This document shows positions 32,066 through 59,481 of a DNA stretch of 64,000 nt, piece after piece. Numbering within the stretch: the first letter of the stretch is position 1; each line of letters opens with the position of its first letter. Source of the DNA: Octopus vulgaris (lineage: Eukaryota); the NCBI GenBank assembly GCA_951406725.2, contig OX597820.1, positions 108,314,001-108,378,000 on the forward strand, written 5' to 3'. Made by a program: the position numbers and the translations under genes. The notes below the pieces were generated by a model. The model worked only from the letters and a program-made list of their open reading frames with translations. It made no database searches and was not told the origin of the DNA.

Positions 32066-33985
32066 AAAATAAAAATATAATATACAGAATATATAAAATA
32101 TAAAATTGAAAAATTAAAATTATTTAAATTTAAAATTAAAATTATTGATTTATATTTATAATTTTATAAAAAAATATATATAACTATAAAAAAGTATTAA
32201 AAAGTTTAATATACATAAATACAGATATATACACTTTGTATATATACATTATATATACATATTTATACATAGAACACACACACACATATATAAATTAACC
32301 CAATAAATATCTGATTCATGATATTTGTTCTCATGATTGTGTGGTAGTGGTGGCAATGATAATTCTCTCTATGAATGCAGACAGACGTAGAGAGAGAATA
32401 TCTGATTCATAATATTTGTTCTCATGATTGTGTGGTGGTGGTGGCGATGATAATTCTCTCTATGAATGCAGCCAGACGTAGAGAGAGAGAGAGAGTGTGT
32501 GAAAGCGCTGTCGAAGGCGGGGAGGAGGGGGAGACTGAGGACGCCGTGACAGAACGTCATAAAGAGAAAGTGAAGGTAAGGGAGATAGACGCCATGAAAC
32601 AACGTTATATATAGAAAGTGATGGGAAGGGAGGAAAGAGAATGAGTGACGGAGGAAGACAGATACATAAAAGAATGAGAGTAGACTTGTCAAAGTGTGTT
32701 TTTGGCCCTAGCAACGACACCTTTTAAGATGGGGATTTCTAACCTATCCCACTAACATCCTCACCTCATTTTACATGTCCCTGCAAATTTTGGAGTCAAT
32801 CCGACGGGATCTAGTGGCTGAATCACAAAACCAATTTGGGACTAATGGGCCATTATATTTTCACTCAGCCCCATGTACTTTAATGATATTTTTTTATTAT
32901 CAACTAAAATGATAGTAACTAATAAAGAACTAAACACTAATAGATCCAGTCTTTCACTGCTTCAATAAACTTACTATTGTCTAATCTGTGACTGATTCTT
33001 ATTTGCCCAAGGTTTCAAGATATGCAGAGAAGAGGTGCAGATATAGCTTGCTTCCCATCCACATGCTTTGATTCCTGCTGTGTGGTACCTTGGTTAAGTG
33101 TCATTTACCTTGTGAGTAGAATTGGTAGACAGAAACTGAAAGAAACCTGTAATGCATGTATGTGTGTATGCATTTATATGTATGTGTATGTTTCCTGTGC
33201 TCTTTGTCAGGCATAGGAAAATATTACTTTAGTTGGAAACAAGTGAAGGTTGCTGATAGGAAAAGCACCTGGTCATAGAAAATCTGCCTCAACAAATTCC
33301 ATCTGATTTCTAGCAGCATGGAAAAGTGTCTGTTAAAACAGTGATGATGATACTGTCATTTGAATTAATGCCAGCACTTGGTTTGTGCTAATGTTGTGGA
33401 TGACAGAATAATGGAGATAAGAGCTAAGCTGACAACAAAGGAATTTCAAGAGAAAATAACAGGATATCTGTTTTTATCAAGTACTTTAGAAATATTATTC
33501 ACTGCCTCAGGTCTTCGTTGCCACCCAACTGCATAACCCAATCTCATAATGTTCTGTTCTAGTACATGATTTACAATTTCAAACAGAACTACGGTTAGCA
33601 ATGAATGTGTGTGATAACACAATTTAAATTCATGTTTGTATGTCTACAGAAGATATAGTGAATTCAATTCTGCCTATGACTTGCTCTGTGCTTTATGTTG
33701 TCAACCTTGGAATACTAAAAGGTTATAGGTGAAGTTGATAGGAGAGGTATTTCAATTCAATAAACAGGATATACTAAATAAGGCATTTTAATAGGTGTCC
33801 TGATTACATCATCTTTTCTTGGAATTGTTACCCACTTCACTCATTTTAAAGGGTGCCCTGATTACATCATCTTTTCTTGGAATTGTTACCCACCTCACTC
33901 AGACTTCTCTCAGCCTATATTGCATCATTAAAAACCATAAAGCTATATATATTAGCGTGTGATCATTACTAACTATTAAGCAACA

Positions 33986-34081
33986 ATGGCTGAAGAAGAG
34001 ATTGCAGCTCTTGAAAAGGCAGTGCAAGACCAAACTGAATTTTTGCAACAATTAGAAAGAAAGAATGCCGGAGAAGAAAAA
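33986..34081 (+). CDS. Paralogous WHEP-like first coding exon A (MAEEEIAALEKAVQDQTEFLQQLERKNAGEEK)
   Basis: acaATGG Kozak, 96 nt open, phase-0 donor GAAAAA|GTAAGGT. Aligns without gaps to exon B at 45264. Confidence 0.7.
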
Positions 34082-34405
34082 GTAAGGTCTTTTTTTTTTA
34101 ATGAATTTATATATGTGTGTGTGTATGTGATAATATAATACTTTTAGCTCTAGATTATTGTGTAATTGTGATTGTGATTTACGAATTTTTCCAATCTTAA
34201 GTGATATTTAATATTCACGGACCATTCATCCTCAAATTAATACAAAATAATAAGAATATCAACAATAATTCTGTAATTTTGACAAAAGGTCAGTAATTTT
34301 GAGGGGAGGAGGCAAGTCAATCACAATGACCCCAGTTCTTGACTGGTACTTATTGAAAAAGGATGCAAGTCAAACTCAGATGAATTTGAATCCCCCTGTT
34401 GAGCT

Positions 34406-34448
<43 letters not shown>

Positions 34449-35059
34449 CAAATGCCCTGATGCAGTACCAGGCAGTGGCTCTCATGGCTGCTGATCTTAA
34501 CTGATTGGAAGTGTTGTTATGTACATTGTTTTGTCTTGGTATAAAAGATGGGCTACAGCAAATATTCTGCTCAAAACCACAGATTTGCTTGTCAGTTGTT
34601 TGACCTTAACCAGTTGAGCATGTCCCTTAGTGGCTGACGATATGTACATCTCTGATCACGAGCAGAAGTAGTGCATCTCTGCACTATATGTGCATCTCTG
34701 ATCACGAGCAGCATCATAGCCATGTGTTGAGAGGTATTCTTTGGGGTTTGAATAATTCACCTCTGGAAACATGGGTGTTTTGTTCAACATCCTTAAACAA
34801 CCCTTATTCAGGGACCTTTTGAGCGGGATGGGTTACTCAACCAGAAGAAAATTCTAACTGGGCCCCCAACTGCAAGGTCATGTGCTGTTTATCTTGATAT
34901 GAGATCACCATGTTGTGCACATATGGTTGTGATGCATGTGCCTAGGGTACCTTTATCAGACGGGTATACTGGGCTTCATATATTTTACCCCAGTGTCACT
35001 TTGATGGCATGCACTGCTCTCTCACTCAATAATAATAATAATAATAAAAATAATAATAA

Positions 35060-35660
35060 TCCTTTCCACTGAAGGCACAAGGCCTTGAAATTTTGGGGGA
35101 GGGGACTAGTTGATTACATCAAGCCTGGTGTTTCACTGGTACCTAGTTTATTGACCCCGAAAGGATGAAAGACAAAGTCGACTGCGGTGGAATCGGAAGT
35201 CAGAATGTATCTGTAGCAGCAGATGAAATACAGCTAAACATTTCGTCCATTGTGTTAAGGATTCTGCCAGTTCACTGCCTTAATAATAATAATTACTATC
35301 TTATAATCATTATTATTTATTTTTATTATTATTGAGGCTGTGAGCTGGCAGAATCATTAGTATGACGGATAAAAATAATTAGCAGTATTTCATTTGTCTT
35401 TTTATTTGGAGTTCAAATTCTGCTGATGCCAATTTTGTTTTTCATTTCATCCATATAGGGGCTATAAAATAAGTACCAGTTGAGCACTAAAGTTGTAATT
35501 GATTAGCCTCTTAACCCCAAATTCTGCCAAGGTCGACTTTGCCTTTCATATTTTCAGGGTCGATAAATTAAGTACCAGTCAAGTACTGGGGTTGATGTGA
35601 TCGACATCCCCCCCCCCAAAAAAAAAATTTCAGGCCTTGTGCCTACAACAGAAGGATATA
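35060..35660. mobile_element. Head-to-head pair of SINE copies (family C) around a TAA/TAT tract
   Basis: GGC(A/T)GTGA(A/G)CTGGCAGAATC head on minus at about 35280 and on plus at about 35336. Both share the tail AATTTCA(A)GGCCTTGTGCCT. Confidence 0.65.
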
Positions 35661-37744
35661 TTATTATTATTTCCTGTGCAGGTGGCACATAAAAAAACAC
35701 CATTTGAGCATTGCTGTTGCCAGTACCACCTGACTGGCCCTTGTGCTGGTGGCACGTAAAAGCACCCAGTACACTCTTGGAGTGGTTGGCGTTAGGAAGG
35801 GCATCCAGCTGTAGAAACTCTCACAGATCAGATTGGAGCCTGGTGCAGCTATCTGGCTCACCAGTCCTCAATCAAGCCATCCAACCCATGCCAGCATGGA
35901 AAGTGGACGTTAAACAATGATGATGATAACACTGATGTCCACAGATTAAGAAATAACACTAATGACAATTAGTCCAATGCCTTTTTGTAGTAAAATATGC
36001 CTTATTTAAATTTTCAGCAATGCATGGATAGATTACTGCATATTTCTATTTTAATCAAGTTCTCTGAAAAAACTTGATCTTTTGATGAAATTTTATATAA
36101 ATACCTTTCACACAGCATACATTACGGTTATAAAGAAATTTCTGAGGAAAATTTTACTGACGGGGTGGGAAGAGGACTTTTGAAGAGTAAGAAATTTATA
36201 GATTATTTTTTTGCGTGAAAAGATATTTTGTTTTAATATTGTACCTTTACTTGTTTCACACACACACACAAACTCTAGTGTGTTTTTTTAGATGAATTAT
36301 TTATTCTTTATCTTTCCACAAACTTTTTTACCACTAACTTCCTTAACCTCTGCATTTTCACTTATTCATTTCAAACTTCTTTGAATTTTCAATCTAATGT
36401 AATCCACACTCTCTTGAAAACGTATTTCTGCAAAAGCTGGAATTCAGGGAATTACCATATGTATGACTATTAAATTTCTTTGCTTTTTAATGCTTTTCAG
36501 AAGTCTATGTTTCTGAGTTATGTACAATTTCATTTGGCCTTTTAATTGCCTGTCTGATAGTTTTCTTTTATTGAGTTATGGTATTAAGACATTAGCAACA
36601 AGTTGGGTGCATCTGGTAACAATTGTTTGTCTTGTTTAACGTTGCAATATTGCAGTCATAAAAGATCAAGTTTTTTCAGAGAACTTGGTTAAAATAGAAA
36701 AAACTTGGATATATATTTTTTTTGTTTGAGTAATAGAAAAAGGTTTTTAAAAAGATCTCATGTATCATGGTGAGAGGAACAAATTCATAAATATAGTGTT
36801 GAATATGGTTTCACTATAGAAAAAAGTTAAGGGTGATTTAGCATATCTCATGACCGTCTGATAATTTTCTTTTTTAATATTTTCGGTTAATTACTACAAG
36901 ATCTCTCAGTTACCAATAAGTAAGTTAACAAGCCTAATGGGTGTAGGAAAATCTGTATTGAATGTTTTAAAGTATAAGCCTAGTTGGGGGTAAGAAGAAT
37001 GTGTGGAGTGCAGTGGAAGCCTTGCATTAGTTACCCGATTTCAGCGCCAAAAATTGCAAAGGAAAAGTGCTTTAGTTTTTCAAATCTATTCTGCAATCTG
37101 GGATTATTATATATTATACATATTATATCCAGTGATTTTAAGAGGTAGGAAAAATATATTTTGTTTTAATATTGTACCTTTACTTGTTTCACACACACAC
37201 ACAAACTCTAGTGTGTTTTTTTAGATGAATTATTTATTCTTTATCGTTCCACAAACTTTGTTACCACTAACTTCCTTAACCTCTGCATTTTCACTGCATT
37301 TCAAACTTCTTTGAATTTTCAATCTAATGTAATCCACACTCTCTTGAAAACGTATTTCTGCAAAATGTTATCTAAAAATATGGGTAAAGAAACAGCAAAA
37401 AAATATTTGGAGGGGGTGGGGGTGAAATTTCCGAGGATTCCACACCACCCCGTTTTCCAGACCCCAAAAAGAGTTTTATGGCATATTAGGAGGTCACCAT
37501 AATTCATTCAACGAAAAAAAAAAATCAACTTACCCAATGATTCTGGGATGGGGGTGGTCCAGTTTCCTACCCACCCTTTTTCTGAACAAAAATAAGGGGT
37601 TTGCAGCAAATTGGGAGGCAGAGTGTGAAATTTGCATCATAGCATGTTCACTGATGTTAGTGTGAAACATTTGATGTCTGTTAGAAAGAAGATAGAAGGA
37701 AACAAAGAAACGGTCTGTCTTACCGCCTAAATGTTGGTTGTTTC

Positions 37745-38265
37745 ACTCATCACACTGAGCTAAACTTATTTATTAAGTGGGCCTGACTTGGATTAATATC
37801 TCCTCAGTTCTGGAGCTTGCAGGATTATTCAGAAGTGATGAGAAGAGACCATATGGTCTTAACCTCTGTCCCTGAGTAAAAGGTAGGTGCCTCGTCTAGG
37901 ACACCATAATCTGTGATTCTTTCGCTCCTGCCTACATCCTGGATGATGCAGTAAATGGGAGGGTCGCTGCTTCTGTAACCAAATTTAACAAAACCCTGAA
38001 GTATCGTAATGTGGCAGTGAACTATCTCTTCCAGCCTGTGGCATTTGAGACATTTGGAGGAATTAGGCCACTAATGGTGAAGTTCTAGTTATCATTGGCA
38101 GCTCGCCTCACTGAAATGTCAGGTGATGCCCATGAGGGTGCTTGGCTTCTCCAATGCCTTAAGCCTTGCCATCGCCCGTGGTAATGCCACAAGCATACAG
38201 ACTTGCTTCAGTAGGTTCCATGAACTTTGTAGTGTGCAACCAATTGAGGCACTTGGTGCTGCATT
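37745..38265 (+). mobile_element. CRE-clade-like non-LTR 3' remnant
   Basis: HTELN.., FRSDEKRPYG, FQPVAFETFGGIRP and LAIARGNA. It shares the 3' end GTGTGCAACCAATTGAGGCACTTGG with 41380-42130. Confidence 0.75.
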
Positions 38266-39132
38266 AATGTTTTTTCCTCCCTTTTTTTTTGTTTTCCTTT
38301 TGTAAAATATATTCTTTTTCATATTTTGAATAAAATATATATTACCACCCCACAAATAAATTAATAAAAAAGTACAAGAAACTAAAATATGAGAAAGCAG
38401 AAGTATAAGTTGCAATTAAACATTCAATCAACGACAATGTTGTTAAATGAAAGTATTTAAAAGGAGCTTTAGAAAAAGTGTTAAAATAAAAGCATAGGGT
38501 TAATGGATCTTGTAAAATTTCTTCCAACCACTTAAAGTTTTTCAAATTATCCTTAAAAATATTTTGATGTAGTTATGCATACTGCTTTAACCCACCCCGT
38601 TCTTTTCTTTTTTATCTCTCTTTTTCTATTTCTTTGTATTTAAATGCTACAATTAAAAAAAATTTGGCAGAGTTAAAGGACATGGACCCCCTTTTGGTTT
38701 TTTGGTGGTGGGGGACGAAATATGTACAAAAATACAGGGATTATGATTATGAAAAAAAATTTTGTAAAATTTAAAATAAAAAAAAAATGAATACTTCTAT
38801 CCCTGCCTGCACATCTATGACAGAAAGTAAAATTAAAGTGTTTTCTCTACTGTTTCACGCATGCGTAGAATTATACTAAAATAGCAGATGTAAAAAGTAT
38901 CTAAACAGAAAATTCCACATGCTAGAAACAGCAGCTAAATGAATTACGTTTTCAAAATCTTCAATTAAGTACACTCCTACCAGAAAGTCCGACAAGCTAG
39001 AAACAACACCCAAATCAAAGATCAACTTTCAAAATATGAATTTCCAAAAAAGAAAAAAATTTCTTTTGAAAAATTGAAAGTTAATAAATTTTTTTTTTTT
39101 TTTTTTTTTCCTGAAAGCTCTGATCATCCAAA

Positions 39133-39690
39133 ATGAGTGGGGCAGAAATCTGTAGTTATGCTGAAGAATCGTGGAATATTACTAAATTGGTAGAATCACG
39201 AGACAAGACAACATTCTTCAATTGTTGGCACAGCGGTTAAATTATGAACAGGTATACCTGTGAATATTGCAATTCACCATGTGGTGACATTATTGACGGG
39301 AAAGTTTGGTACCGCAAACTTTGTAAAATGTGAAAATCAATCCGTCATGGGTCATTCTTTGACAAAAGCCACGTGTCCCTGTATAGCATCTTTTTAATCA
39401 TTTATTGTTAGTCACGTGATATGTCACAAAATGATATGCATGAATCTTCTATACAAAGTAAGGCGAAGGTAAAGAATATGCACACCTGGTGTTTAGAGTT
39501 AGGGTTATGCCGAAAATGGGTGGTGTGCGTATTCTTTACCTGTGCCCAAAACTGCGATCATAGATTGGAGTAATTTCTGTTGAGAAATATATGATGTTTG
39601 GCTCAAACAAAATCCAATGCAAATTGGGGTCATTGATGCTTATGGGCAACCAATAGTTGTGGAGATAGACAAGAGTAAATTTTTTCATGC
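39133..39690 (+). mobile_element. Merlin (IS1016/ISXO2-like) transposase remnant
   Basis: CEYCNSP..DGKVW..SIRHGSFFDKSHVSL..IIYC, then after an 85-bp insert IIDWSNFC*E..QIG..VVEIDKSKF (first catalytic VEIDES-like motif). Confidence 0.8.
39462..39546. mobile_element. 85-bp micro-MITE inside the Merlin remnant
   Basis: About 25-bp TIRs GGCGAAGGTAAAGAATATGCACACC / GGTGTGCGTATTCTTTACCTGTGCC. The centre contains TTAGAGTTAGGGTTA. Confidence 0.75.
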
Positions 39691-41379
39691 AGTTTCACAC
39701 CTCTCCTTGAAAAATGCATCTGGCACATCACAGTGTGTATAATAATTATAATACATATACATATATATGTGTTGTCTATTTTTAATAAAAAATATTTACT
39801 CGTGTTTTAAGTTCTATCTTTCTGTGTGTATCACCAACTATATACATGTATAAATGGAGAGAGAGAAGCAATTACGCAGATAAACAAATTAAATATAACA
39901 GATGTAAGGTGTTATAAGCTGTTGGATTTATAACACCTTATCTCTACCCCTTTAATATTCTCTGTCATTTGTGCTCTGTGTAAGTTTGATCTATTAATAT
40001 ATGAATATCTATATATAAGGTATGTACTATGAGTGCTGTTTGGTTTACCACTAAAACTCCAGTTTGAACTGCAACTGAACATGTGATGTTAAAACTGCCT
40101 ATCAGAAGTGGCTATAGGTGGTTTTTTTCCTTGAGCAGATAGATAAAGATTAAAGTAAAAATGAAAAGGCAAACCGTTTGGGATCACTTGAAAAAGACAT
40201 TTAATTTAGATAGAGAATATATAGAATATAGAGTCTCGTGCAGTTGTTTCTAGAATAGCCAAGTGTGTGGATCATCATACTGAGTAAGGATTTCATAGGC
40301 TGAGTATACTGTCATCAGAGAGATGTAAAAGTGAGGGTAAGTCCTCAATCGATGATATTAGGGTAGTTCAGTTTGTCAAAATTGGGGGAAGGATATGTTA
40401 GGTAGATCCATGATCAAATGAAGAATACAGTTATAGGTAATATCCAACAGCAGCTTCAAATGAGAATATTCGATGATAATCCATGGTGAGGAATAGTGAA
40501 AGTTACCTGTACCAGTTTTGAATAGAGAATGAATGAGAGTAGAATAGGGATATTATACTATAGTCAGGAGGAAAGACAGGTGGATGTAGTAGAGTAAATA
40601 TATAGCAGTCAGTATAGTGGGGTATGCAAGTCGAGAGAGGTTAGCAAGTGCATGTATAGAGACAGGAAAAGGGATGAAGAATAACATATCAAATGATCAT
40701 CAAGGCTGGCCAGGGTTAGCAAAAATGGGAGGGATAAGGTAGTGATTGTAAAAAAGTAGTTGTAAAAGATAATGATCTCATGCTAAAGGGAGCCTGATAA
40801 TAATGGAAGTGAGGGGAGATTTGGGACTGGTTGTAGTGATGCTAGAAGTAAATGCCCATAATATTGAATATAAAATATAAAAATTTGTGGTGTTAATGAA
40901 ATGTATGCTCATTGGGAACTGAGGGATAAAAATAAAGATTTAAAATGATAAATCAAATAAAGATTTAAAATGGTAAATCAAAAATAAATAGATTAGGGAC
41001 ATATATTTACTAAGTTTAGATATAGTGAAATTGTAGGGCTCAAGAATGAAGGAACTAAATATCATATTAAATAAATGAGTGAAGAGAATTGAAAAGATTG
41101 ATTAATTATATGCATTTTAGTAATTCGTATATAGTTCCAAACCATCAAGAGAGATGCTGAGTAGTGTTCTATTAATTATTAGTGTGTTGCAGCTGAGAGG
41201 ATATTCTATTAGTTATGATCTAGGTGGGGGGATATTAAATATGGAATAAAGGAAAGAAAGAGAATCTACAGAAGGAAAAAGATGTGAAGATATTGTAATC
41301 TACATACCTATACTTAAATATTCATCGTCTGAAAATTTTCCGTCTTTGCTTTCTTTCTGTTTGCACATATACATACAGT

Positions 41380-42130
41380 TGAGGATAGACGGAGCAGAGA
41401 GTATGGGACAATCTGCACTCAGTTCCACTTTCAACTCTCTCTTTGATCAATTTTCAAGATGTTGCCTTCTGCTAATGCAAAATTCTCAAGGGACTGGATT
41501 GATGCCCTGCCTGTGGCTAACATTGATGGTCTACTCAGTCTAGATGAGCTCTGCATCTCCATAGCACTCAGAGTGGGAGCTGACGTCTGTGGGGAACTGA
41601 GATGTTCATGTTGTAGGCTCCACAACTCAGCAGGTTTTCATGGTTTGTCTTACTGCCTAAAACACTGCTTGCTTTGCTTGTCACACCAAGATAAACTTAA
41701 TCATTAAACAGGCCCTGGCATGGGTTAATATCCCCTCAGTTTTGAAGCTGGTGGGATAATGCAGAAGTGATGGGAAGAGATCAGATGGTCCTTACCCTTT
41801 GTCCCCAGGTAAGATATAGGTGTCTAGATGCTGTAGTAAATGGGAGAATCACTGCTTCTGTAGCCAAACAAAACAAAATTCTGAAGTACTGGGACTTGTC
41901 AGTGAACCATTTTTTCCAGCCTGTAGTGTTTGAGACGTTTGAATGGGCTGGGCCACTAATGGCAAAGTTCTTGTCATTGTTGGCAGCTTGCCTCACTGAG
42001 ACGTCAGGCGATGCCTATGCAGGTGTTTGGCTGTCCCAACACCTTTGGCTTACCATCAACCATGGTAATGCTGCAAGCATGTTGAACTTCGGGTGTGCAA
42101 CCAATTGAGGCACTTGGTGTTGCATTGGTG
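41380..42130 (+). mobile_element. CRE-clade-like non-LTR 3' remnant (Zn-knuckle + REL endonuclease)
   Basis: DWIDALPVA..ISIALRVG..CSC..HGLS..HQDKLN, RSDGKRSDG, KILKY, FQPVVFETF and INHGNAA. Confidence 0.8.
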
Positions 42131-42794
42131 TTTTTTCTTTTCTTTTTTGGTTTCTTTTTTCTTTCTTTGTTCCTCTTTTTCCATTGTTTTCCCCCTGGAT
42201 TTGGATTCGCATTTTTAATGTGATTTTTGCATTATACATGTATCATATACATACGTGTTATGTTCCAATAAAAGAATATTTCCTTAAAAACAAAAAATGT
42301 ATGCATATATGTGGAGTGGGGTTGCAAAATGGAATGTTTTTACTGCATTTTTTACCTTGGCACGAAATATAAATTTTTTATAAATGTTCATAACCTTCCA
42401 AAAACTATATCAGCTAAGCAAAAGGCCTTCCCTAAATGCCTTGAAAGTATTTTAACATAATATGATCACTATTTCAGAAAATTATCGTTGTTCTCTTTCA
42501 ACATATAATAGACAAATTTGGGTGGGGCAAAATGAGTAAGACAAGATAATATATATCTGCCACTTCAATTCTCTAGAATCACATTTGAAAAGACACTGAA
42601 ATTCGTCAGTATCCATCCCTAAACATTAGAAATGCAAAATAAATTTTAAACACCTAGGTCAAATGAAAGAGGATCAGGGGAAAATGGCACATGATATGCA
42701 ATCAATGAAACTCGATTAAAAAAAAAAATTCAACATAGAATATTCTCTATAGCTTCTTCACAATCTGCTGGAGTGTCCCCTTCATGATATATTT

Positions 42795-43160
42795 ACACAA
42801 TGGATGGAAGCACTCCGTCGGTTACGACGACGAGAATTCTGGTTGATCCGAACAGCTTGCTCGTGAAATTAACGTGTAAGTGGCTGAGCACTCCACAGAC
42901 ACGTGTACCCTCAACGTAGTTCTCGGGGATATTCAGCGTGACACAGAGAGTGACAAGGCCGGCCCTTTGAAATACAGGTACAACAGAAACAGGAAGTAAG
43001 AATGAGAGAAAGTTGTGGTGAAAGAGTACAGCAGGGATCACCACCATCCCTGCCTCGTGGAACTTTAGGTGTTTTCACTCAATAAACACTCACAACGCCC
43101 GGTCTGGGAATCGAAACCGCGAGTCCGCTGCCCTAACCACTGGGCCATTGTGCCTCCACT
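42795..43160 (-). mobile_element. SINE with family-A tRNA head and a different 3' part
   Basis: Head identical in type to 3509-3773. Diverges after CTCTTTCACCAC..ACTTTCTC. Confidence 0.7.
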
Positions 43161-43299
43161 ATATTTACACACCGTGTAGTTAAAGAGAAGAAATAACTGA
43201 AATTAGTCGTTACTCATTTTACCCCCATTTTAGACATCATAATGCTGGCGTGGGGGGACGTCCCACACCAGCATTAACAAAACCAACAACAGAAGCAGC

Positions 43300-43800
43300 A
43301 GTATTCAAAGATACACGAGATGTTCCGGAAACACCTCTCCAACAACAGATCCGAGAGAGACGATGTGCCATGTCCTTGGCCAGCCATGTGTGGCACCTGA
43401 AGGACAAAGGGACTCCACAGGTAATCTCATGGAAGATCCTAGAAAAACCAGACCCTTACATCAACGGGAACAAGTGTTGCAAGCTGTGCTTAGCTGAATG
43501 GGCAAGTATATTAAAGAAGTTCATCAACTCGGAGAACATCTTAAATTCAAGGATGGAAGTCTTCAGATCCTATTTACACTTCATGAGATTGCTGCTGAAA
43601 TCCTGGAACCCACAGACTGACCGGGTCCACTACAGATAGTGGTCTAAGGGAGACAATCCCTTGCATTTAACCCTTCTCCTTTGTCTGTTTTCAACAACTA
43701 GTCTTCTCCCCCCACTTTGAATAGGGGTTATAGGCCAGTGGCTATTTTGGTCTGAAGAGCTAAGTACTTTACGGATGCGAAGCCTTAGATAACCCCTATA
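43300..43800 (+). mobile_element. Penelope-like GIY-YIG C-terminal fragment with a downstream degenerate hammerhead (43749-43794)
   Basis: LASHVWHLK..ISWKILEK..PY..CKLCLAE..ILNSRME, followed by GGT-CTGAAGA-GC..GC-GAAG-CCTTAG-ATA-ACC. Confidence 0.75.
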
Positions 43801-44611
43801 ACCATCTTTATCTAATATATCATCATTTAACATCTGTTTACCATCCTGGATGGTTTGACTGAAAATTGGTAAGCTGAGGGAGCTGTACCAGGTTTCAATC
43901 TGATTTGTCATGGGTTCTAAGCTGGATGCCCTTCCTAACGCCAACCACTCCAAGAGTGTAGTGGGTGCTTTTTATGTGCCATTGGCATGGGTGCCAGTTA
44001 CGAAACACCACGACTATGATCTCACTTGGCTTGACAGTTCTTATCAAGCATGGTGTATTGCAATAAGTCTCAGTCACATTCATGCATTTGTTTAGCAAGA
44101 TTCTTGATGTGAAATCATCTGTTGAGATAGGTATTGTTATACTTAGGGACGGTCATTGTTTGCTAATTAAACACACGCACTATATATTTGGCCTTCACTT
44201 CAACTTTATTATTATTTTAATTTCTTTTTGTTAAAGCTCTTTCAATACACATCCTGTGACCTCTTTAGTAACTCTATCCCACGTCTCCTCCAGAAACAAA
44301 GTCAAGGGGGTGCACACATGCGTAGGAATCTGGTCGAACATTTGGATGCCGTCAACTAATTACCATGGTTTCGCTCCGCTTGCAACAAACAGTAGCCAAA
44401 TCTCACCACACCATTATATTAAAAAAATAAAAATCGCCCTAAATATAATGCCTGAACGATTTGCTGAATTATGTTGTCCTAGTCGAACTGAATAAAATAA
44501 ATACCAAGTTGGCTGGAACACATTTGATCATAGTTTTGCCACACCAGGACGATTAAATAACAAGAGAAACAGACAACCTAACCAGACAATCTAATACAGT
44601 CAAACAGGTGT

Positions 44612-44901
44612 AAAAAAATGTAGAAAACGAATATGAAAACAAAAATTTGTGCAGACGAACGTGGGGGGAACTTTCGGAAAATTCACAAGATCCGATTTTC
44701 CGAAATCCTTTCCCCACCCTACGGAAAACATTTCCCCATAAATTTCTTTATAATAGTAATCTATGACATTTCATCAACATATATCCATTTTCCTGAAAGT
44801 TATGAGGGAGAAATCGGATGTTGTGAATTTTCCGAAGATCCTCTCACCCCACGTTCGTCTGCACAAATTTTTGTTTTCATATTCGTTTTCTACATTTTTT
44901 T
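44612..44901. repeat. Foldback/inverted-repeat element (about 90-bp arms)
   Basis: AAAATGTAGAAAACGAATATGAAAACAAAAATTTGTGCAGACGAACGTGGGG.. and its reverse complement. The same family (GAAAATTCACAAGATCC modules) occurs at 48540-48985 and 50800-51490. Confidence 0.88.
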
Positions 44902-45059
44902 AAAAACCTATTTGACTGTGTTTCTAATTTTGATTTGGTGAACGGGAGTTAAACTATATATTAACCGACCCACACGAAATTTTGTAAATTGCATTCTCGC
45001 CGGATTGATTCCAACTTCTGAATTGTGTCACTCTTGTTTTAGGTTAGGTACAAATGTAA

Positions 45060-45263
45060 ACATTTACCGTAAATATAGTAACGTTATTTCACTTACGTCA
45101 CACGAATTCTTGACTGGGTTCCTGATATTTTATCAATATCATAAAGAAAGTAAGCAAAGCCCCTTCTCCCCATATACAGGGGCTTCCCGGTTTCCTGTCC
45201 GATTGCATCATCAAATGCACCGTTTACCGGAAGTGACCTTTCAGTTGCCCTCATCTCATCACC
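45060..45263. promoter_or_regulatory. CpG-enriched housekeeping-type, probably bidirectional promoter
   Basis: ETS/GABP motif CCGGAAGTG (45227-45235), Inr consensus TCAGTT (45241-45246) about 20 nt before the ATG, and CRE-like TTACGTCA (45093-45100) overlapping a minus-strand GTAAGT donor. Confidence 0.65.
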
Positions 45264-45359
45264 ATGGCCGAGCAAGAAAAAGCCGCAGTGAAACAGGCAA
45301 TCAAAGAACAAGGTGAAATTGTGCGTAAATTAAAAGCAGAGAAAGCTGAAAAAGAAAAA
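45264..45359 (+). CDS. HARS: First coding exon encoding the first WHEP helix, most likely cytoplasmic histidyl-tRNA synthetase (MAEQEKAAVKQAIKEQGEIVRKLKAEKAEKEK)
   Basis: accATGG Kozak, WHEP signature QGE.VR.LK..KA, phase-0 donor AAA|GTAAGG. An N-terminal WHEP with an intron at this point matches my recollection of HARS1 exon 1. No later exons were recognised in the window. Confidence 0.72.
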
Positions 45360-46142
45360 GTAAGGTTTGATATACCATATGTGCGATGGTGCTTTAAATT
45401 CAAGCTTGTTATGTGATTATTATTACTGAATTTTGCAAATCATATGGGATATTTTTATCGCATTCGTTTCATACATTTCTCAATAAGTTTTTTTCTTTTG
45501 AACTAATTAAATTTTCGCTCAAATATAATTTATATATTCATCATTACTAAGGGCTGCTTTGGTGATTTCTTGTAACACAGTTATGGCTAATTTTTGCAGG
45601 GGAGAGTTATGGTCAGTTGAATCGTTCGTACGACATTACAGGTACTTGATATCGATGTCTCAATCGACACCGCACTTTTTTTTAATTGTAAACAGCTGAG
45701 TACAGAGATAAGCAGAGTATAGCATCCAATCATGCATTAGAACCATGCAACCATTTTTACTGGCTTATTATTGTTGAAGGACAACAGTTGCGTGAGATTG
45801 TGTAAACTTGGAACCTTTTCGAAATCTAGCAGCGTCATTGTAGTGAATTGGCTTAAACTATTCAAACCGAGACGTGGACTCGACTTGCCGCTAAGCGTTA
45901 CTTTCTTATTATATTCTCTACATCGCTTTTCTATGAAGGTGGTTATAATGTTCTCTAATTCTATAAACTTAAACTGAACACGCACACATCTATTTCAAAA
46001 ATGTTTCATAATCATTAGTCGGGTAAATATATTTTGTAGGACTCCCTCTCAGACTTATCTTTGAACACCTCGTTTTAAGTGGCCAGACGTAGCTTATTCT
46101 GAACTCATCACATCTTGGAATACACACACACACACACACACA

Positions 46143-46360
46143 CACGAGGGGATACTGAAATGTTCCTGGTTTGGGGTAGAAGAAAATACCAAGAGGATCA
46201 GTTAATTATGATTTTAAGCAACACATTCTCCTCTCAGATTTACACACCGCAGCAGTCCTTCAGTTTTTCTAAGACCCGTAAAAGAACTCAGAATGCTGGG
46301 CTGCCATCCAGGCCTTTCGCGACACTCTTAAAGTCAGGGATTTTTCAGCACCCCCCTCGT
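46143..46360. mobile_element. Mariner-type MITE
   Basis: CACGAGGGGGATACTGAAATGTTCCTG ... CAGGGATTTTTCAGCACCCCCCTCGT inverted ends. Confidence 0.7.
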
Positions 46361-46462
46361 ATATACAGGGGGTGCACAATGAGGACTGCATTTTCGACTT
46401 TGAGAAGAAATAACTTTTTTAAAAATGTTCACAACCTTGTGTGTGTGTGAATATATATATAT

Positions 46463-46889
46463 CTTCTATATATATATAAAACTGAGAATGTGTGTCTCTA
46501 TGTGAATCCCTAAAACTTGAGAACTAAACAACCAATTTCATTCAAATTTTGCACATGCCTTACTTAGGGTCCATGTAGTGTCATGGGCAAAAATGTTTTT
46601 AGCTTCTTGCCTAGGGCGAGCCCACAGCAATATTATATCTTCTCTACTATTTCAGTATTACGTGTTAAAAGTGAAAGAAAAACATCTCTCTATTGTAATG
46701 TCAGATGCTTTCAGTTTAATAGTGAAACTATTATATAACAGGGTTGAACCATTAAGAGTGGACATCCATTTTGCTAGAAGAAGATCCGCTATGGTCTTAT
46801 ATGCTACACCACTGGTTTTCAATTCATATTAATCAAATTAATATTTAATCTTTCACCCTTATTATTTTAAATTCAAATTTACATGTGTA

Positions 46890-46930
<41 letters not shown>

Positions 46931-47440
46931 GGATGTATATATATATATATGGATGTGTATATATATATATATATATATACACATACATGTATATATATAT
47001 ATGGATGTGTATATATATATATATATATGTACACATATATATATACACATATATACATGCATACATATATACACCCAGACACGCACACACATAGGTGCAG
47101 GTGTGGCTGTGTGGTAACAAACTTGGTTCTAAAACATATGGTCCTCAGTTCAGTCCCACTGTCTGGTGACTTGGCATGTGTCTTCTGCTATAGCCTCAGA
47201 CCAACCAAAGCCTTGTCAGTGGATTTTGTAGACAGAAACTGAAAGAAATCAATCGTATACATATATATGTATGTATATATGTAAGTCTATGTGTGTGCCT
47301 TTCTGTTTCTCCCTCATCACTGCTTCTCAACTGGTGTTCGTTTATTTACATCCCCATAACTTACTGGTTTCACAAGAACAAACTAATAGAATAATAGAAT
47401 ATTTTTGTTTGCCCACTCAGTTGTATCTATCAATTTATCA
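46463..47440 (+). mobile_element. Helitron-like unit with captured SINE; inverted copy of about 24830-25890
   Basis: Collinear reverse-complement match that includes the unique spacer, microsatellite and SINE parts. Confidence 0.7.
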
Positions 47441-49567
47441 TTGTATGTGTGTGTGTATGTATGTATGTATCTATCTATATATATATCACTCTAATGCTCC
47501 CAAATTTTAGTCATTTCTTTTATGTTCCAAAACTAGGTCAAAAGTACTGAATGGATTTTTATGAAATTTGAAAATTATATTCTATGCATATGGGCCATAA
47601 CCCCATTGACAATTCATGAATTTTTGCTGTTGGCGAAATTTTAACCATAGATATTAGACACAAATGAAGTAATATTTATAAAATTTCATCATCTTACAAG
47701 TTAGAAAGACCCCTCCATGGGGACTTAACACCCACAATTTTGTCATTTTATCTAAGCAAAAACGAATACAGTTGTGCTCTTGGAAGCTGTAGGGTTACCC
47801 GAGCATACAAGATGAGCATTATTTGTAATTCAATGGTACAACAGTGTAACAGTTTGCTTTGACATACACTTACGTTGGGATTTCTGCAATGTGGTGCATA
47901 AATTGTCAAGTAAATGAGAGGCATCTTTGCCTCCACTGATTCGGAATTGTGAGTTTATGTCAAACAGCTGCTGTCACGCCTAGGAAGGGTACAACTGTCA
48001 ACCAAGTCAATAATAAAGATTATTCTACATCCTCTCTGAACAGGGACGGGAAGGTCTGTTTTCTCTATGTAATGGCTGTGGCGAAAGAGGTGGTATGGAA
48101 GACACGCATGAAAGGAGTGGTGACAGGTGTCTTCATTTCCAGCCTTAGTTTGGTAAACTGTTTTATTTTCCATAAGGTTGGAGAGGAGACGCTTGTCACT
48201 CAGTATATATGAGAAAAGATGAAAGAAAGTGGCAAGCATGTTGAGAGTGAATGTGCCTGCTTGAGTGAAAACATAAGCCTCATAAAGGGATCTGTGGTGA
48301 AACATGGGGTCACACCTGTCTCTCACTCCATCATTGTTAGATCATCCGTTATTCATATATATTATCATAAATTTTTAATTAATGTATCAACCCTTTGTGG
48401 TTAATAAAGAACCAATTTCCAAATCCTCTCACTCTCTATTTTAATGTTTTCATTTCAAGTTTTAATCCACTATTTGCAAACAACTACAATAAATGGTTAA
48501 TGTTGAAATTAAAAAAAAAATATATATAGTCTACAACTTGACCTGGAAATGAAAATCAGGAAAAAATAGTGCAATGGGTGTAAAAAAATGTATAGGAAAC
48601 GAATATTTTAAAAAATGTGTGCAAAGCGGACCTCAGTGGGGAGAGGACCTCAGAAAATTCACAAGATCCAAGTTTTTCCCTCATAACTTTTAGGACAATG
48701 GGGTTTTTTCATATGTGATATAAATGACATTTTATATGAATACCTTTCAAACAGCATACATTACGATTATAAAGAAATTTGTGGGGAAAATCTTTTCCAA
48801 GAGAGTGGAGAGAAGACTTAGGAAAATTCACAAGATCTGAGCTTTTTGCTTGTAACTGTTAGGAAAATGTGTGTCTGTTTTTTTTTTCAAACAGCATACA
48901 TTGCGATTATAAAGTAATTTGTGGGGAAAATCTTGAGGTGGGGAGAGGACTTTCAGAAAATTCCCACGATCTGAATTTTTCCATTCCAAAATCACATTGA
49001 ACTTTCTACAGATGCTCTAGCATAGCACTACTACACTATGTAGTGTTTATTTCTACCCACTTTCAATAATTTTTAATGTTTTGGCTTCAATTTTGTTTCA
49101 TTTTATTTCCAGTTATTTTGACGCTTTTTAAACCCTTCCGTTGTTTTTCTCATTCACTCATTATTTTTTCTCTCTATCTATCTATCTATCTATCTATATA
49201 TATATATACACACACACACACATACATCTATATACATATACACACACACACATCAATATATACACACATACACACACATATATACACACACACACACACA
49301 TATATATATACACACATATATACACATGCACACACACATATATATGTATATATACAGACATGTATATACAAGATAATATAATGGATCTTACATATGAATA
49401 TTATGGATTATTGCAGTAGAATAACCAAGGAAGTATATATGGATTTAAAGACTCATCAAAAGTAGTAATTTTTAATTTATCTTTCAAACAAACACCATTC
49501 TATAGTTTTACTTCAAATTAAAAAAAACAAACTATCATTCGATATGTTATACAGAATTCAAATTTTA

Positions 49568-49659
49568 TATCTCTGAAGAGCAGAAGCATTGTCTATAAAT
49601 GCTTATCAATATAGGATTTCATTATAGGGACAACTCTTCTGTGAAACGATCATAAGATG
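49568..49659 (+). ncRNA. Penelope-type hammerhead with long stem II
   Basis: TATCT-CTGAAGA-GCAGAAG..(long arm)..CTTCTGT-GAAA-CGATC-ATA-AGATG. Stem I is ATCT/AGAT, and ACGATC(A/G)T is a near-palindrome. Confidence 0.68.
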
Positions 49660-49704
49660 CTTTAAATAATTAATTCAAAACTTTTAAACTGTCATATACA
49701 TTAT

Positions 49705-50640
49705 ATCATCATCATCATTTAGCGTACGCTTTCCACGCTAGCATGGGTTGGACGGTTCAACTGGGATCTGGGAAGCCAGAAGGCTGCGCCAGGCCCAGTC
49801 TGATCTGGCAATGTTTCTACGGCTGGATGCTCTTCCTAACGCCAACCACTCCGTGAGTGTTGTGGGTGCTTTTACGTGCCACCGGCACAGGTGCCAGACG
49901 GGGCTGCAAACGGCCATGGTCGGATGGTGCTTTTTACGTGCCACCGGCACGGGGGCCAATATTTTTATCATCATCATCATTGTTTAACGTCCGTTTTCCG
50001 CGCTAGCACGGGTTGGAGAGTTCGACTGGGGTCTGGGAAGCCAGGAGGCTGCACCAGGCTCCAGTCTGATCTGGCAGTGTTTCTACAGCTGAATGCCCTT
50101 CCTAACGCCAACCACTCCGCGAGTGTAGTGGGTGCTTTTTATGTACCACCGGCAAAGAAGCCAGTCGAGGTGGCGGTGGCATCGGCCACGATCGGATGGT
50201 GCTTTTTATGTGCCACCGGCACAGGTATCACAACTACTATTTCCATTGATATTTATTTCGATGTTCATGTACTTGACTCAATAGGTCTCCTCAAGCACAG
50301 CGAGATGTTCTGGAATCCAAGGTACTTTGAATGGGCAGGGGCTATGCGGAACTGGTGCAGGAAGCAACCTGGGTCTTTGCAGTCACAGCATATCTCCAGA
50401 GATCTCAGTCCTTCGCCATTGCCTCTGTGAGGCCCAACGCTCTGAGGTCATGCTTGACTACCTTATCCCATGTCTTCCTGGGTCTACCTCTCCCCCTGAT
50501 ACCTTCAACTGTTTGGGAGCGGCACTTCTTCACACATCTCTCCTCATCCATCCGCAGTACATGACCATACCATCGCAAGCGTCGCTCTTGCACACCACAT
50601 CTGATGCTTCTTATGTCCAGCATTTCTCTCAGGGTGCTTA
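49705..50640 (-). mobile_element. RTE 3' end with duplicated terminal module
   Basis: RLRWYGHVLRMDEE..GRGRPRKTW, with two (CAT)n-tailed terminal units at about 49705 and 49968. Confidence 0.85.
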
Positions 50641-51599
50641 ACATATTTATATTTATATATTTATTTATTTATTTATATATTTTTAATTCGACAATTATTT
50701 TTCACACGTGTATATCTTTCTGGGGAGTTTTGATATTGATTTCCTAATATTAATAATAATATTATTAAAAAATATATATGTATACATACAGACACATTAA
50801 ATTTTTACAAGATTTTCCCCACAAATTACTTTATAAGGTATTTATGTAAAATTTCATTGAAAAAAAAAAACATTTTCCTAAAAGTTATGAGGGAAAAACT
50901 TGAACCTTGTGAATTTTCTAAGGTCTTCTCCACACCCTCCCATTGCTTTGCATGCATTTTTTTATATTATTCGTTTCCTACACATTTTTTTACACCCATT
51001 GCACTATTTTTTTCTGATTTTCGTTTCTGGGTCAAGTTGTAAGCATTAAGCAAAAATAGTGCAATGGGTGTAAAAAAAAAAGGTGTAGGAAACGAATATG
51101 AAAACAAAAATGCCCGGAAAGCAATGGGGGTTGGGGAGAGGCCTTCAGAAAATTCACAAGATCCGATGTTTTTCCCTCTTCTCTTTTAGGAAAATGCGTT
51201 TTCTTAGTGAAATTTTATATAAATACATTTCAGATAGTATAGATAATGATTATAAAGAAATTTGTTGGGAAAATCTTTTCCTGGGGGTGGGGAGAAGACT
51301 TCGGAAAATTCACAAGATCCGATGATTTTCTCTTGTAACTTCAAGGAAAATGGGTATCTTTCTACTTTACACCCATGTAGGAAACAAATCTGGAAACAAA
51401 AATGCACAGAAAGTAATGGGGGTGGGGGAGATAGGGCCTCAGAAAATTCACAAGATCCAAGTTTTTCCCTTGTAACTTTTAGGATAATATGATCCTTTTG
51501 AAATCACAAATTAGGGTTTTCCTCTGGAACTTGGATGCTAAACATCCCTTGAAGGGTTCGGGTCCTAACTTTTACCATATATATATGTGTGTGTGTATA

Positions 51600-54500
51600 T
51601 ATATTGCAAAGAACACAGATACAAGATTTTCTGGGCAGGGAACACTGACGGGGTTGGGGGCGTGGGTATACTTCTTGCTGAAAAATGGGTAGATAAGGTA
51701 ATTGAGGTAATCAGGGTATGTGACAGAATACTTAAGATTAGATTAGTGCTTCATCATGGATTAGCAACCATTATATCAGCCTCTGCCCCTCTGCCTGGGC
51801 TACCCGATAGACAGAAAGACCGATTCTATGACACCCTACTGCAGACTACCTCATTGACGAACGACAGAGACCTTCTCTTTGTGGCTTGTGATTTCAATGG
51901 GAATGTTGGAAAACATGCTGGGGGCTTCCATGGTGTACGTGGAGGTTATGGTTATGGTTCCCGCAACGAGGAGGGAACCAGGCTGCTGGAGTTCTGCGAT
52001 GCAAATGACCTTATGGTTTGCAACTCTAACTTCAGGAAACCTACCAGTCACCTACCGATCGGGACGACATACTAGCCAAATTGACTACATCCATACCAGG
52101 AAAAGGGAAAGATGGCTGCTTATAAATGCCAAAACCTTCCCAGGCGAAGAATGTACCCCACAACATAGACTGGTAGTTAGTGACTTTAGGATCAGGACTA
52201 AGAGGACGACTAGAAGACGACCAACATGGAGAAGAAGGATCTGGAAGCTTAAATATCCTGCGAATGGACAGAGACTTAGGGAAATATTACTTGAAGCCTT
52301 TGATGAAGTAGAAGGGGATATAGCTTCACATGGGGTAGAAGACAGCTGGAGGTCTCTAAGGGACAACCTGCTGAGAGCCACTGACCAGATCTGTGGCTGG
52401 TGCAAAGTCCCCTCTCGACCTAAAATAACGTGGTGGTGGAACAATGTTGTAGACAGGGCTATTAGAGAAAAGAGACAGGCTTGGAAGGACTGGAAGAATG
52501 GGGGTAGCAGGGAATTGTATCAGACTGCCCAAAGAGAAGCTAAGAGACAGGTTTATTTAGCCAGAGGGGAAGCAGATAAGAAAAAATTTGCCAATGTTCT
52601 GCGCCATGAAGACCAAAGACTTGAGGTATTTCATGTTGCAAGACAGTGTGTGAGAGAAAATCATGATGTGGTAGGAGAGAAATGTGTTCACATGGTTGAT
52701 GGTTCACTTGCGCTAAATAAGGTTGCAAAGAGAGAGGTTTGGAGATGCCACTATGAAAGGTTGCTGAATAAAGAAAATGAATGGGATGAAGAGAGTCTGC
52801 CGAATGTCGACCCAATGGAGGGACCAGCCATCCAAGTTGACTATTCTTTGGTAGTTAAAGCAATTAGAAGCATGAAGACAGGGAAAGCCCCAGGCCCATC
52901 AGGAATTACTGCAGAGATGCTCAAAATATCTGGCAGTGTCAGCTATAACCTAGTCACCTGTATAGTTAACCAGGTGATACACGAAGGAGTCATACCCAAT
53001 GACTGGTGTAGCAGCATAATAGTCAACTGCTACAAAGGTAAAGGTGACGCTCTACATACAAATAATTACAGAGGTATCAAGCTGTTGGATCAGGTAATGA
53101 AAGTTACGGAGAGGGTCATAGCCCAACTAATTAGAGAGAGAGTGTTAGTTTAGATGAGATGCAGTTTGGGTTCGTGCCAAGGAAAAGCATCACTGATGCC
53201 ATATTTCTGGTAAGACAGATGCAGGAGAAATACCAAGCCAAAGATAAGCCCCTGTACCTGGCTTTCGTTGACATTGAGAAAGCCTTCGACAGGGTCCCCC
53301 GATCCCTTATCTGGTAGTCAATGAGGAAACTAGGGATAGTGAGAGCTGTGCAAGCCATGTACAGGGACGCTGCTAGAAAGGTGAGGGTTGGCAACGAGTA
53401 CAGTGAAGAATTCCGGGTAGAGGTAGGGGTCCACCAAGGTTCAGTTCTCAGCCCCCTCCTATTTATCATAGTCCTCCAGGCAGTAATGGAGGAATTCAAG
53501 ACAGGATGCCCCTGGGAGCTCCTCTATGCTGATGACCTTGCTCTAATTGTTGAGTCACTATCAGAACTGGAAGAGAAGTTTCAGGTGTGGAAGCAAGGAT
53601 TAGAATTGAAGGGCCTTAGAGTCAACCTAGCTAAAACCAAAGTCGTAATAAGTAGGAAGGTAGACAAGTCAAAAGCACCTTCAGGTAGATGGCCCTGCTC
53701 GATCTGTAGAAAAGGCGTAGGTAGAAACTCTATAAGATGCACCAAGTGTAAGGTATGGACACATAAGAGGTGCAGCAATGTCAAGGGAAGGCTAACTAGG
53801 AAGATAGTTTTGTATGTGGCAGATGCTCAGGAGCAATAAACAATGAAAATGCTCTGAGACCAACTTCTGTCACTTTCCAGGGAGAAAAACTAGAAATAGT
53901 TGATAGCTTCCATTACCTAGGGGACCAAGTCAGTAGCGGGGGCAGGTGTGCTGAAAGTGTAACTGCTAGAGTAAGAATAGCTTGAGCAAAGTTCAGAGAG
54001 CTCTTACCTCTGCTAGGGACAAAACCCCTCTCGCTCGGAGTAAAAGGCAGACTGTATGACGTATGTGTACGAACAGCCATGCTACATGGCAATGAAACGT
54101 GGGCTGTGACTGCTGAGCATATGCGTAAGCTCGCAAGAAATGAAGCCAGTATGCTCCGATGGATGTGTAATGTCAGTGTTCATACTTGAGAGAAAAGTTG
54201 GACCTAAGAAGCATCAGTTGTGGTGTGCAAGAGAGACATTTGCGCTGGTGTGGTCATGTGGCGAGAATGGATGAAGATCGTTGTGTGAAAAAGTGCCACA
54301 CCCTAGCGGTTGAGGGAACCTGTGGAAGAGGTAGACTCAGGAAAACCTGGGACAAGGTGGTGAAGCACGACCTTTGAACTTAGGTCTCACCGAGGAAATG
54401 ACTAGAGACCGAGACCTTTGGAAGTATGCTGTGCGTGAGAAGACCCGGCAGGACAAGTGAGACCATAACCTGTGGCCTCCGTCCACTTATGCATACATTT

Positions 54501-59412: not shown

Positions 59413-59481
59413 AAACTTACTTGGAAATGGATGGGTGGCGTTAAATTAAATAATAATATAAATTTTATATATATATACATT

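Follow-up and report, generated by a model that had tools for sequence, protein, structure and literature searches.

Exchange of N-termini on a shared enzyme core is an established feature of HisRS. In zebrafish (hars), yeast (HTS1) and invertebrates, PMC5608375 describes single genes in which common catalytic and anticodon exons are joined to different starts, giving WHEP and mitochondrial forms. The role of the HisRS WHEP domain itself is unsettled, as reviews link it to tRNA or partner binding, autoimmunity and neuropathy and hold it mostly dispensable for charging. In human HARS-deltaCD variants, splicing alters how the WHEP domain is presented (PMC9956352). Replacement of a first coding exon by a tandem duplicate, with the core kept and the surface changed, is known more generally, and such N-terminal (UHP) cases make up 40 of the 236 human events of tandem duplicated exon substitution described in PMC9741552. 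A search of the main text of that paper found neither "synthetase" nor "HARS". Finally, 16 of 20 cytosolic synthetase genes in mouse are induced via CAREs, the consensus of which is TGATGxAAx (PMC5175342).

The window, a stretch of 64,000 nucleotides of Octopus vulgaris DNA (contig OX597820.1), contains two exons, A and B, that were proposed in a preliminary description to be duplicated first exons (Table 1). Both 32-codon frames were open throughout when re-read from the sequence, and the gap-free alignment reported for them was recovered, with 65 of 96 nucleotides (68%) and 13 of 32 amino acids identical. The likeness is not due to chance because the next-best ungapped 96-nucleotide match to exon B in 264 kb scanned was 50/96 (mean, 25.5; standard deviation, 4.8). 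Also as described, each start codon lies in a strong Kozak context (A at −3, G at +4) and the two donor junctions are identical, here across 15 nucleotides (8 exonic nucleotides plus GTAAGGT). The exons are homologous, in tandem and in the same phase, and both fit one downstream exon, an arrangement expected of tandem first-exon substitution. The region from 33700 to 34100 matched only itself in the genome, making exon A a single-copy duplicate. We conclude from sequence comparison that exon A arose long ago by duplication of the first exon of HisRS.

Table 1. Features of the HisRS locus and its upstream region. Plain positions are those of the window.
Feature	Position	Strand	Description
58-bp tandem duplication	33784..33901	+	two copies matching at 93%; upstream of exon A
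CARE-like ATTACATCA	33803-33811, 33861-33869	+	one per 58-bp copy; upstream of exon A
CARE/AARE-type 9-mer ATTGCATCA	33919..33927	+	−67 from exon A ATG; sole alignable flank island
TATA-like element	33944..33949	+	−42 from exon A ATG; pattern match only
Exon A	33986-34081	+	32 codons, phase-0 donor GTAAGGT; acidic WHEP helix-1 duplicate, candidate alternative first coding exon of HisRS
CARE/AARE-type 9-mer ATTGCATCA	45202..45210	+	−62 from exon B ATG, within CpG-rich region (o/e about 1)
Exon B	45264-45359	+	canonical WHEP helix-1 exon; first coding exon, annotated cytosolic HisRS (P0126)
HisRS intron 1, 5′ part	45360..64000	+	runs beyond window end
Candidate mitochondrial-presequence first exon	L019:2462-2569, G000:C7:108400462-108400569	+	36 codons, phase-0 donor, between exon B and exon 2
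Common exon 2	L020:3763-3852, G000:C7:108411763-108411852	+	WHEP helix 2, 90 nt, phase 0-0

The HisRS identity of the gene and the common exon 2 predicted beyond the window were both confirmed. P0126 mapped exon by exon onto the locus, with its WHEP, tRNA-synt_His and HGTP anticodon Pfam domains all above cut-off, and exon B together with the downstream exons belongs to a eukaryotic HisRS gene. Exon 2 fits both exons in phase 0 and lies 52.4 kb from exon B and 63.7 kb from exon A. At the level of single exons, TIGR00442 and P0126 queries matched at the locus and PF13393 gave no match at E 1. All 13 genome matches to P0126 fell here, and no second HisRS locus was detected among them. Consistent with the earlier account, no other synthetase or WHEP exon was recognized between exons A and B; in a Pfam scan of 24 of the 107 open reading frames of the window, those lying between the two exons had no match.

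Further starts were sought around the locus. The candidate mitochondrial exon ranked 5th of 1661 by similarity; no other candidate in the top 8 lies between exon B and exon 2, and its donor score was the best of those 8. In mollusc HisRS models the N-termini are exchanged just before WHEP helix 2, and mitochondrial isoforms do without helix 1 entirely (compare PMC5608375). A scan starting 100 kb upstream of the window and ending at exon 2 found no exon of the "GDIH" type. The unusual N-terminus MQFNAEK, with which the O. sinensis model P0009 begins, was considered as a third WHEP copy and rejected, the peptide being a repeat-like string that occurs three times in the 350 kb scanned. Mollusc HisRS N-termini (WHEP, mitochondrial, GDIH and acidic WHEP) are more varied than the cytosolic/mitochondrial pair in the literature searched, and Octopus HisRS records currently miss probable first exons.

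Exon B had been called canonical and basic and exon A acidic. The acidity of exon A was upheld (4 K/R, 9 D/E; net −5), but exon B proved only mildly basic overall (9 K/R, 7 D/E; net +2), and what was lost in exon A is the conserved basic patch and not a strongly basic whole. Exon B retains the WHEP signature, as claimed (Pfam WHEP-TRS, E 3e-7). Of 16 canonical sequences, 15 have Gly17 and all 16 have Arg21 and Lys24; exon A has none of the three, in agreement with the reported loss of the Gly and most basic residues. Exon A alone gave no PF00458 match, and a helix-1 profile built for molluscs scored it at E 20; its product falls outside WHEP-TRS both by profile and by the QG..VR.LK helix-1 signature. 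The hydrophobic register was kept, as had been noted, with hydrophobic residues at positions 9, 13, 19, 20 and 23 and with Q16 and A28 also retained. Moreover, the hydrophobic moment was 0.40 for exon A versus 0.31 for exon B, and the exon A product qualifies as an amphipathic helix.

The absence of nearly invariant WHEP positions is also compatible with exon A being a dead duplicate, a pseudo-exon that formerly worked and is now untranscribed and decaying. Selection on the frame bears on this alternative in both directions. Identity between exons A and B at codon positions 1, 2 and 3 was 18, 27 and 20 of 32, and so few second-position changes (hypergeometric p = 0.011) argue against decay. 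The overall dN/dS was about 0.5 (dN, 0.38; dS, 0.76, on just 17.8 synonymous sites). Because exon B is strongly conserved, it is the A lineage that took most of the amino-acid changes; dN/dS along that lineage may be near 1, which counts against use of exon A. Likewise, 9% of stop-free neutral copies reached the BLOSUM score that exon A has with exon B, and the score was not significant. In 20,000 neutral simulations, the ATG, open frame and GT survived in 1.7%, 4.7% and 12% of runs at 31, 24 and 16 differences, with a further assumed indel penalty of 0.01 to 0.38 applied afterwards, and these survival statistics are inflated because exon A was noticed for being intact. Similarity between the duplicates ends at functional borders, in that the exon is gap-free and the ATG, donor and upstream CARE are intact though the flanks are random-like, which again speaks against decay; an exon that was long in use and died only recently would leave identical traces.

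Searches for an exon A product leaned toward a silent exon. None of 22 candidates of 89 to 2000 amino acids scored as an exon A protein, no candidate was found at 27 to 88 amino acids, and exon A is absent from all 6 members of the Octopus HisRS cluster. A search of sequencing runs with the exon B region gave 24 rows, of which 20 contained part of it and none was on record as RNA, with run types guessed; this outcome is weighed on neither side. Exact look-up of the exon A peptide was negative, and exon B controls were equally negative. A single match among 1.84 billion representatives, to a bacterial-type coiled-coil repeat protein, was judged a match of composition and set aside. A literature search that covered few subscription papers found no report of exon A. 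Should exon A prove silent, it would be a decayed duplicate of the ordinary kind.

The upstream flanks differ in almost everything except one element. Over 120 nucleotides, the flanks of exons A and B aligned no better than random DNA, as 69% (upstream, motif removed) and 26% (downstream) of about 1500 random stretches scored as well. The longest word common to the upstream flanks was the 10-nucleotide ATTGCATCAT, and a word that long was shared with the B flank in 0.9% of 1498 random 120-mers. Within it, ATTGCATCA occurred 8 times in 364 kb, and in 30-100 kb solely at the sites upstream of the two exons. By sequence match to the consensus, a CARE thus lies near the synthetase start upstream of both, and mouse Hars has this very 9-mer as its CARE, given in complement form and listed at +2.4 kb (PMC5175342). 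The promoters are otherwise unlike in make-up: that of exon A is CpG-poor and TATA-like with three CARE-like sites 58 bp apart. That of exon B is CpG-rich and carries CCGGAAGT, which we take to be an ETS-like site. No ETS-like site was found in the surroundings of exon A, and this absence, with the CpG-poor setting, fits a dead duplicate. The genome gave 8 bZIP matches, none of them identified as ATF4. At the presumed GlyRS locus, examined as a CARE control over 60 kb in which exon 1 was not located, there were four strict CARE-like sites, and an exact copy of the 9-mer lay close to a CpG-rich patch.

An acidic counterpart was found in one other octopod. The Argonauta hians HisRS model P0011 joins a Gly-less, acidic first exon of 33 amino acids (net −5) to exon 2; the record is a model built by a pipeline from mixed evidence, namely ab initio, RNA and homology (PMC12682272). 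When 5883 open reading frames of the octopus locus were searched with this exon, the best match was exon A (E 0.12), with exon B at E 1.7. Its identity is 10/28 to exon A and 9/28 to exon B, while exon B is 24/32 identical between octopus and cuttlefish, and the core is closer to octopus in argonaut (412/476) than in cuttlefish (381/478). Independent drift from exon B attained the 10/28 in 0.4 to 1.7% of 3000 simulated runs. On the other side, exon A and its argonaut counterpart depart together from exon B at 15 positions but share only 4 of these (p 0.04 to 0.06). A grouping of the two was supported at 96/95 but unites a pair of long branches over just 33 columns. With helix 2 attached, the argonaut acidic form scored 30.4 bits, below the WHEP cut-off of 32.5, and the B form scored 49.6. 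Single-sequence AlphaFold2 returned one straight helix for the argonaut N-terminus and for the canonical octopus control alike and was uninformative on the hairpin; the ESM Atlas gave just one 0.84 WHEP/HisRS lead, with the argonaut N-terminus as the query. P0011 thus provides one candidate orthologue of the duplicate. The joining of its acidic exon to exon 2 further weakened the case for a dead exon A, which we now consider unlikely.

Another explanation grants that exon A is expressed but holds that selection keeps only the extra CARE-rich promoter, so that any in-frame amphipathic helix would serve as the peptide and the basic residues were lost to relaxed constraint. Consistent with this explanation, the CARE was kept and two further CARE-like sites were added upstream of exon A, and the 10/28 identity to the argonaut exon indicates no specific conserved new surface. 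Helix 1 is moreover absent from the mitochondrial isoforms noted above, and WHEP removal is mostly without effect on aminoacylation, according to a review (PMC8247414). Set against it is that both lineages arrived at net −5 and both lost K14, G17, R21 and K27, which looks directional, on two sequences only. We regard this explanation as doubtful, a shade more so than death of the exon. Finally, it is very improbable that exon A is transcribed but joined to another exon or gene, or read into the intron as a 50-amino-acid peptide, for although its frame stays open for 18 codons beyond the donor and the intron to exon 2 would span 63.7 kb, the phase-0 donor is conserved, exon B already requires a 52-kb intron, the argonaut acidic exon goes to exon 2, and neither a second HisRS locus nor a recognizable coding exon between A and B was found.

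The proposal that alternative promoters swap half of the WHEP domain was therefore supported in part, and it is strengthened because a CARE stands at the same place before both exons, because changes are biased by codon position and because the Argonauta model has an acidic first exon. We conclude that exon A is probably an expressed alternative first exon with a separate promoter, likely inducible or tissue-restricted. The chances are about even for the whole reading, in which first exon and proximal promoter were duplicated together long ago and now work as an alternative start of an acidic-helix HisRS. Transcripts from exon A would splice across the 63.7 kb in frame to exon 2 and would skip exon B, itself a first exon, giving a predicted cytosolic HisRS of 510 amino acids. 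That would bring the gene to three starts, an acidic WHEP one (A), a canonical WHEP one (B) and one with a mitochondrial presequence. Promoter B would be the housekeeping start, and promoter A might respond to ATF4 and amino-acid supply or be confined to certain tissues. In the A isoform, helix 1 would keep its hydrophobic packing face and lose its basic face; the enzyme should still charge tRNA(His), since neither its catalytic nor its anticodon domain is altered, and might bind RNA or partners through WHEP more weakly. It is a tentative and rather unlikely extension that octopods have a stress-switched HisRS, in which an ATF4-driven promoter with three CARE-like sites exchanges half of WHEP for an acidic helix, so that charging is kept and the RNA or partner face of WHEP is turned off or redirected; on this extension, the acidic exon may also stand in, among octopods, for the third ("GDIH") first exon that bivalve and gastropod HisRS have. 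Such a switch, if true, would be a natural separation, within one gene, of canonical from noncanonical synthetase function. Two natural isoforms driven by separate promoters and alike in all but the charged face of WHEP helix 1 would offer a clean test of the role of WHEP.

The octopus locus resembles each of the known systems and departs from each. Like the single-gene HisRS systems, it would exchange N-termini on common exons, but there the alternative is a nonhomologous targeting sequence, whereas here it is a homologous WHEP helix-1 duplicate with its net charge reversed, present besides a candidate mitochondrial exon. Unlike in the N-terminal tandem exon cases, the predicted swap would replace half of a two-helix domain. 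The 9-mer near the synthetase start is that of the mouse ATF4/CARE promoters, but the octopus sites, which are sequence matches, are multiplied at a candidate alternative promoter that would change the isoform. Human HARS-deltaCD variants keep WHEP and drop the catalytic domain, and the octopus A isoform would do the reverse, keeping catalysis and altering WHEP. A homologous duplicate as an alternative HisRS start, its transcription being predicted, would be a new form of tandem first-exon substitution.

Two related exons, exon A and exon B, were as the preliminary description had them: each holds 32 codons at the expected position (table), each start codon is preceded by A at −3 and followed by G at +4, both share a 15-nt exon/intron junction ending in GTAAGGT, and they align without gaps at 65/96 nucleotides and 13/32 amino acids. 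The runner-up 96-nt match to exon B in the 264 kb scanned reached 50/96, and exon A was single-copy at genome-search sensitivity, both as protein and as 401 nt of DNA including the upstream region. Exon B opens the octopus HisRS protein P0126 (source label, Octopus vulgaris), which maps across a locus whose catalytic exons lie on the same strand, 62 to 85 kb beyond exon B. All 13 genome matches to P0126 fell at this locus, and thus the search detected no second HisRS gene to which exon A could belong. One HisRS gene for cytosol and mitochondria is given as the ancestral state (PMC5608375).

Features in and beyond the window (window numbering, continued past its end where marked; L019 and L020 are downstream stretches of the same contig, L054 a stretch of another contig, G000:C9)
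Feature	Position	Strand	Description
ORF	7052-7894	-	intronless, 280 codons, BUD23/WBSCR22 18S rRNA m7G methyltransferase-like (E 6e-24)
RVT_1 fragment	14752-15186	+	reverse transcriptase
Exon A	33986-34081	+	32 codons
Inverted repeat	44593-44922		imperfect, about 75% over 350 aligned columns
Exon B	45264-45359	+	32 codons
RVT_1 fragment	53318-53839	+	reverse transcriptase, then PHD-like finger
Candidate mitochondrial-presequence first exon	86462-86569, continued (L019:2462-2569)		36 codons, phase-0 donor after Gln
Exon 2	97763-97852, continued (L020:3763-3852)		WHEP helix 2, 90 nt, phase 0-0
Exact ATTGCATCA	L054:4696-4704		presumed GlyRS locus, about 5.2 kb upstream of WHEP exon

Exon A is acidic, with a net charge of −5, as had been claimed; exon B carries +2, so "basic" overstates it as a whole. 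Compared with 16 canonical helix-1 sequences, exon A has lost K14, G17, R21, K22, K24, and K27 and retains Q16, L23, A28, and hydrophobic residues at 9, 13, 19, and 20, which bears out the loss of Gly and basic residues within a preserved hydrophobic register. The amphipathic moment is kept, and a profile match failed to return exon A as a WHEP member. Single-sequence AlphaFold2 predictions came out as a single straight helix for the argonaut acidic N-terminus and for the canonical octopus control alike. The WHEP domain is a two-helix bundle (PMC4357726; domain lists in PMC11580382 and PMC11953622), and the exon A helix could pack on helix 2. Reviews assign WHEP domains a presumed role in contacts with tRNA and with proteins (PMC9956352) and state that charging mostly survives their removal (PMC8247414). 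We put at about even the chance that exon A is a second, separately controlled start of the sole HisRS gene that removes the basic WHEP face. Joined to exon 2 across a 63.7-kb intron, this start would yield an isoform of the same length and catalytic core, under control that is probably ATF4-type or tissue-restricted.

Exon A could instead be dead, which we consider unlikely. It is indel-free relative to exon B and has an intact ATG and donor, despite 120-nt flanks in which A-B likeness is at the random-DNA level on both sides. Identity by codon position is 18, 27, and 20 of 32 (p = 0.011). ATG, frame, and GT all survived in 1.7 to 12% of 20,000 simulated neutral copies, a range set by the share of the 31 differences given to exon A and taken before an assumed indel penalty. 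Exon A was, however, chosen for being intact, which bears against a reading of selection, and 9% of stop-free neutral copies matched or exceeded the observed BLOSUM score. Between the exons, dN is 0.38 and dS 0.76, with only 17.8 synonymous sites underlying them. Because octopus exon B is identical to that of cuttlefish at 24/32 positions, most replacements fall on the exon A branch, for which a dN/dS of about 1 is possible. Exon A might also be expressed yet maintained for its promoter alone, which seems rather unlikely.

The DNA upstream bears on that promoter. ATTGCATCAT is the sole upstream island common to both exons, at −67 of exon A and −62 of exon B, and 0.9% of 1,498 random 120-mers shared a word as long with the exon B flank. 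The shared 9-mer fits, as a pattern, the CARE (ATF4 response element) consensus TGATGxAAx; this exact 9-mer occurs eight times in 364 kb, and from position 30 kb to position 100 kb there are just the sites at A and B. Since the island is kept upstream of both exons, the original duplication likely took in the proximal promoter, the motif surviving longer than its surroundings. With the pair of ATTACATCA copies that a 58-bp tandem duplication contributes upstream of exon A, the CARE-like sites there number three, spaced 58 bp; a TATA-like element lies at −42 of exon A. The upstream CpG observed/expected ratio is about 1 for exon B and 0.12 to 0.23 for exon A, against a background median of 0.32, and exon B is preceded by what we take to be an ETS-like site. 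We infer a housekeeping promoter for exon B and an inducible or restricted one for exon A. Induction via ATF4/CARE is reported for 16 of 20 cytosolic synthetase genes, and the mouse Hars entry shows the identical 9-mer (PMC5175342). The presumed GlyRS locus, scanned as a control, has a second CARE-like site besides the tabulated one; both are near a CpG-rich patch, and the GlyRS first exon was not located. Directly upstream of the exon B promoter, the inverted repeat is probably a MITE-like element, with related copies deeper in intron 1.

Protein searches with exon A returned no protein carrying the octopus exon. The Argonauta hians HisRS model P0011, whose probable source annotation combined RNA and homology evidence with ab initio prediction (PMC12682272), starts with a 33-residue acidic exon that lacks the signature Gly and Arg and is joined to exon 2; that octopus exon A joins something else is highly improbable. 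Exon A was the best match to the argonaut exon among 5,883 locus ORFs (E 0.12; exon B, 1.7) and ranked first among 1,661 exon candidates (53.0; exon B, 47.0). Identity to exon B is 9/28 despite HisRS core identities of 412/476 (octopus-argonaut) and 381/478 (octopus-cuttlefish), and on this comparison the argonaut exon is too diverged for an ordinary exon B orthologue. Its identity to exon A is 10/28, which independent drift gave in 0.4 to 1.7% of 3,000 runs, and 4/15 derived residues are common to both, a borderline value (p 0.04-0.06). A tree of 18 rows, 16 of them canonical (exon B and 15 hand-chosen), pairs the two at 96/95, with long branches and 33 columns. We conclude that they are likely orthologous.

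Other first exons were also seen. The mitochondrial candidate has three Arg, one acidic residue, and a strong donor and resembles mitochondrial first exons of other molluscs; drawn from the 1,661 ATG-to-donor candidates, where it ranked fifth by similarity, and missing from the six Octopus HisRS cluster members compared, it is a candidate only. The O. sinensis model P0009 begins with a string that has three copies across the scanned 350 kb, and its annotated start is therefore probably a repeat-derived artefact. Bivalve and gastropod models (P0131, P0135, P0151, P0156, P0046, P0084, P0088, and P0161) have a third conserved first exon, neither WHEP nor mitochondrial, with the motif G[DG]IH[KH]; all three N-termini occur in Mytilus, Mya, Dreissena, Argopecten, Babylonia, Pomacea, and Bradybaena. 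This type was absent from the octopus HisRS locus as scanned, and literature searches on HisRS in general met no paper on it. Elsewhere in the window, the BUD23-like ORF, head-to-head with HisRS, is possibly a retrocopy or divergent paralogue, and the RVT_1 fragments are retroelement remnants.

With three signs of function, partly independent of one another and read from sequence, exon A appears to be a real lead that can be tested. Known HisRS N-terminal alternatives distinguish cytosol from mitochondria, and a literature search, mostly of listings, found no report of half a WHEP domain duplicated with its charge reversed. N-terminal tandem exon substitution is a known class, accounting for 40 of 236 human events (PMC9741552), and the octopus arrangement is a variation on such substitution and on alternative N-termini.
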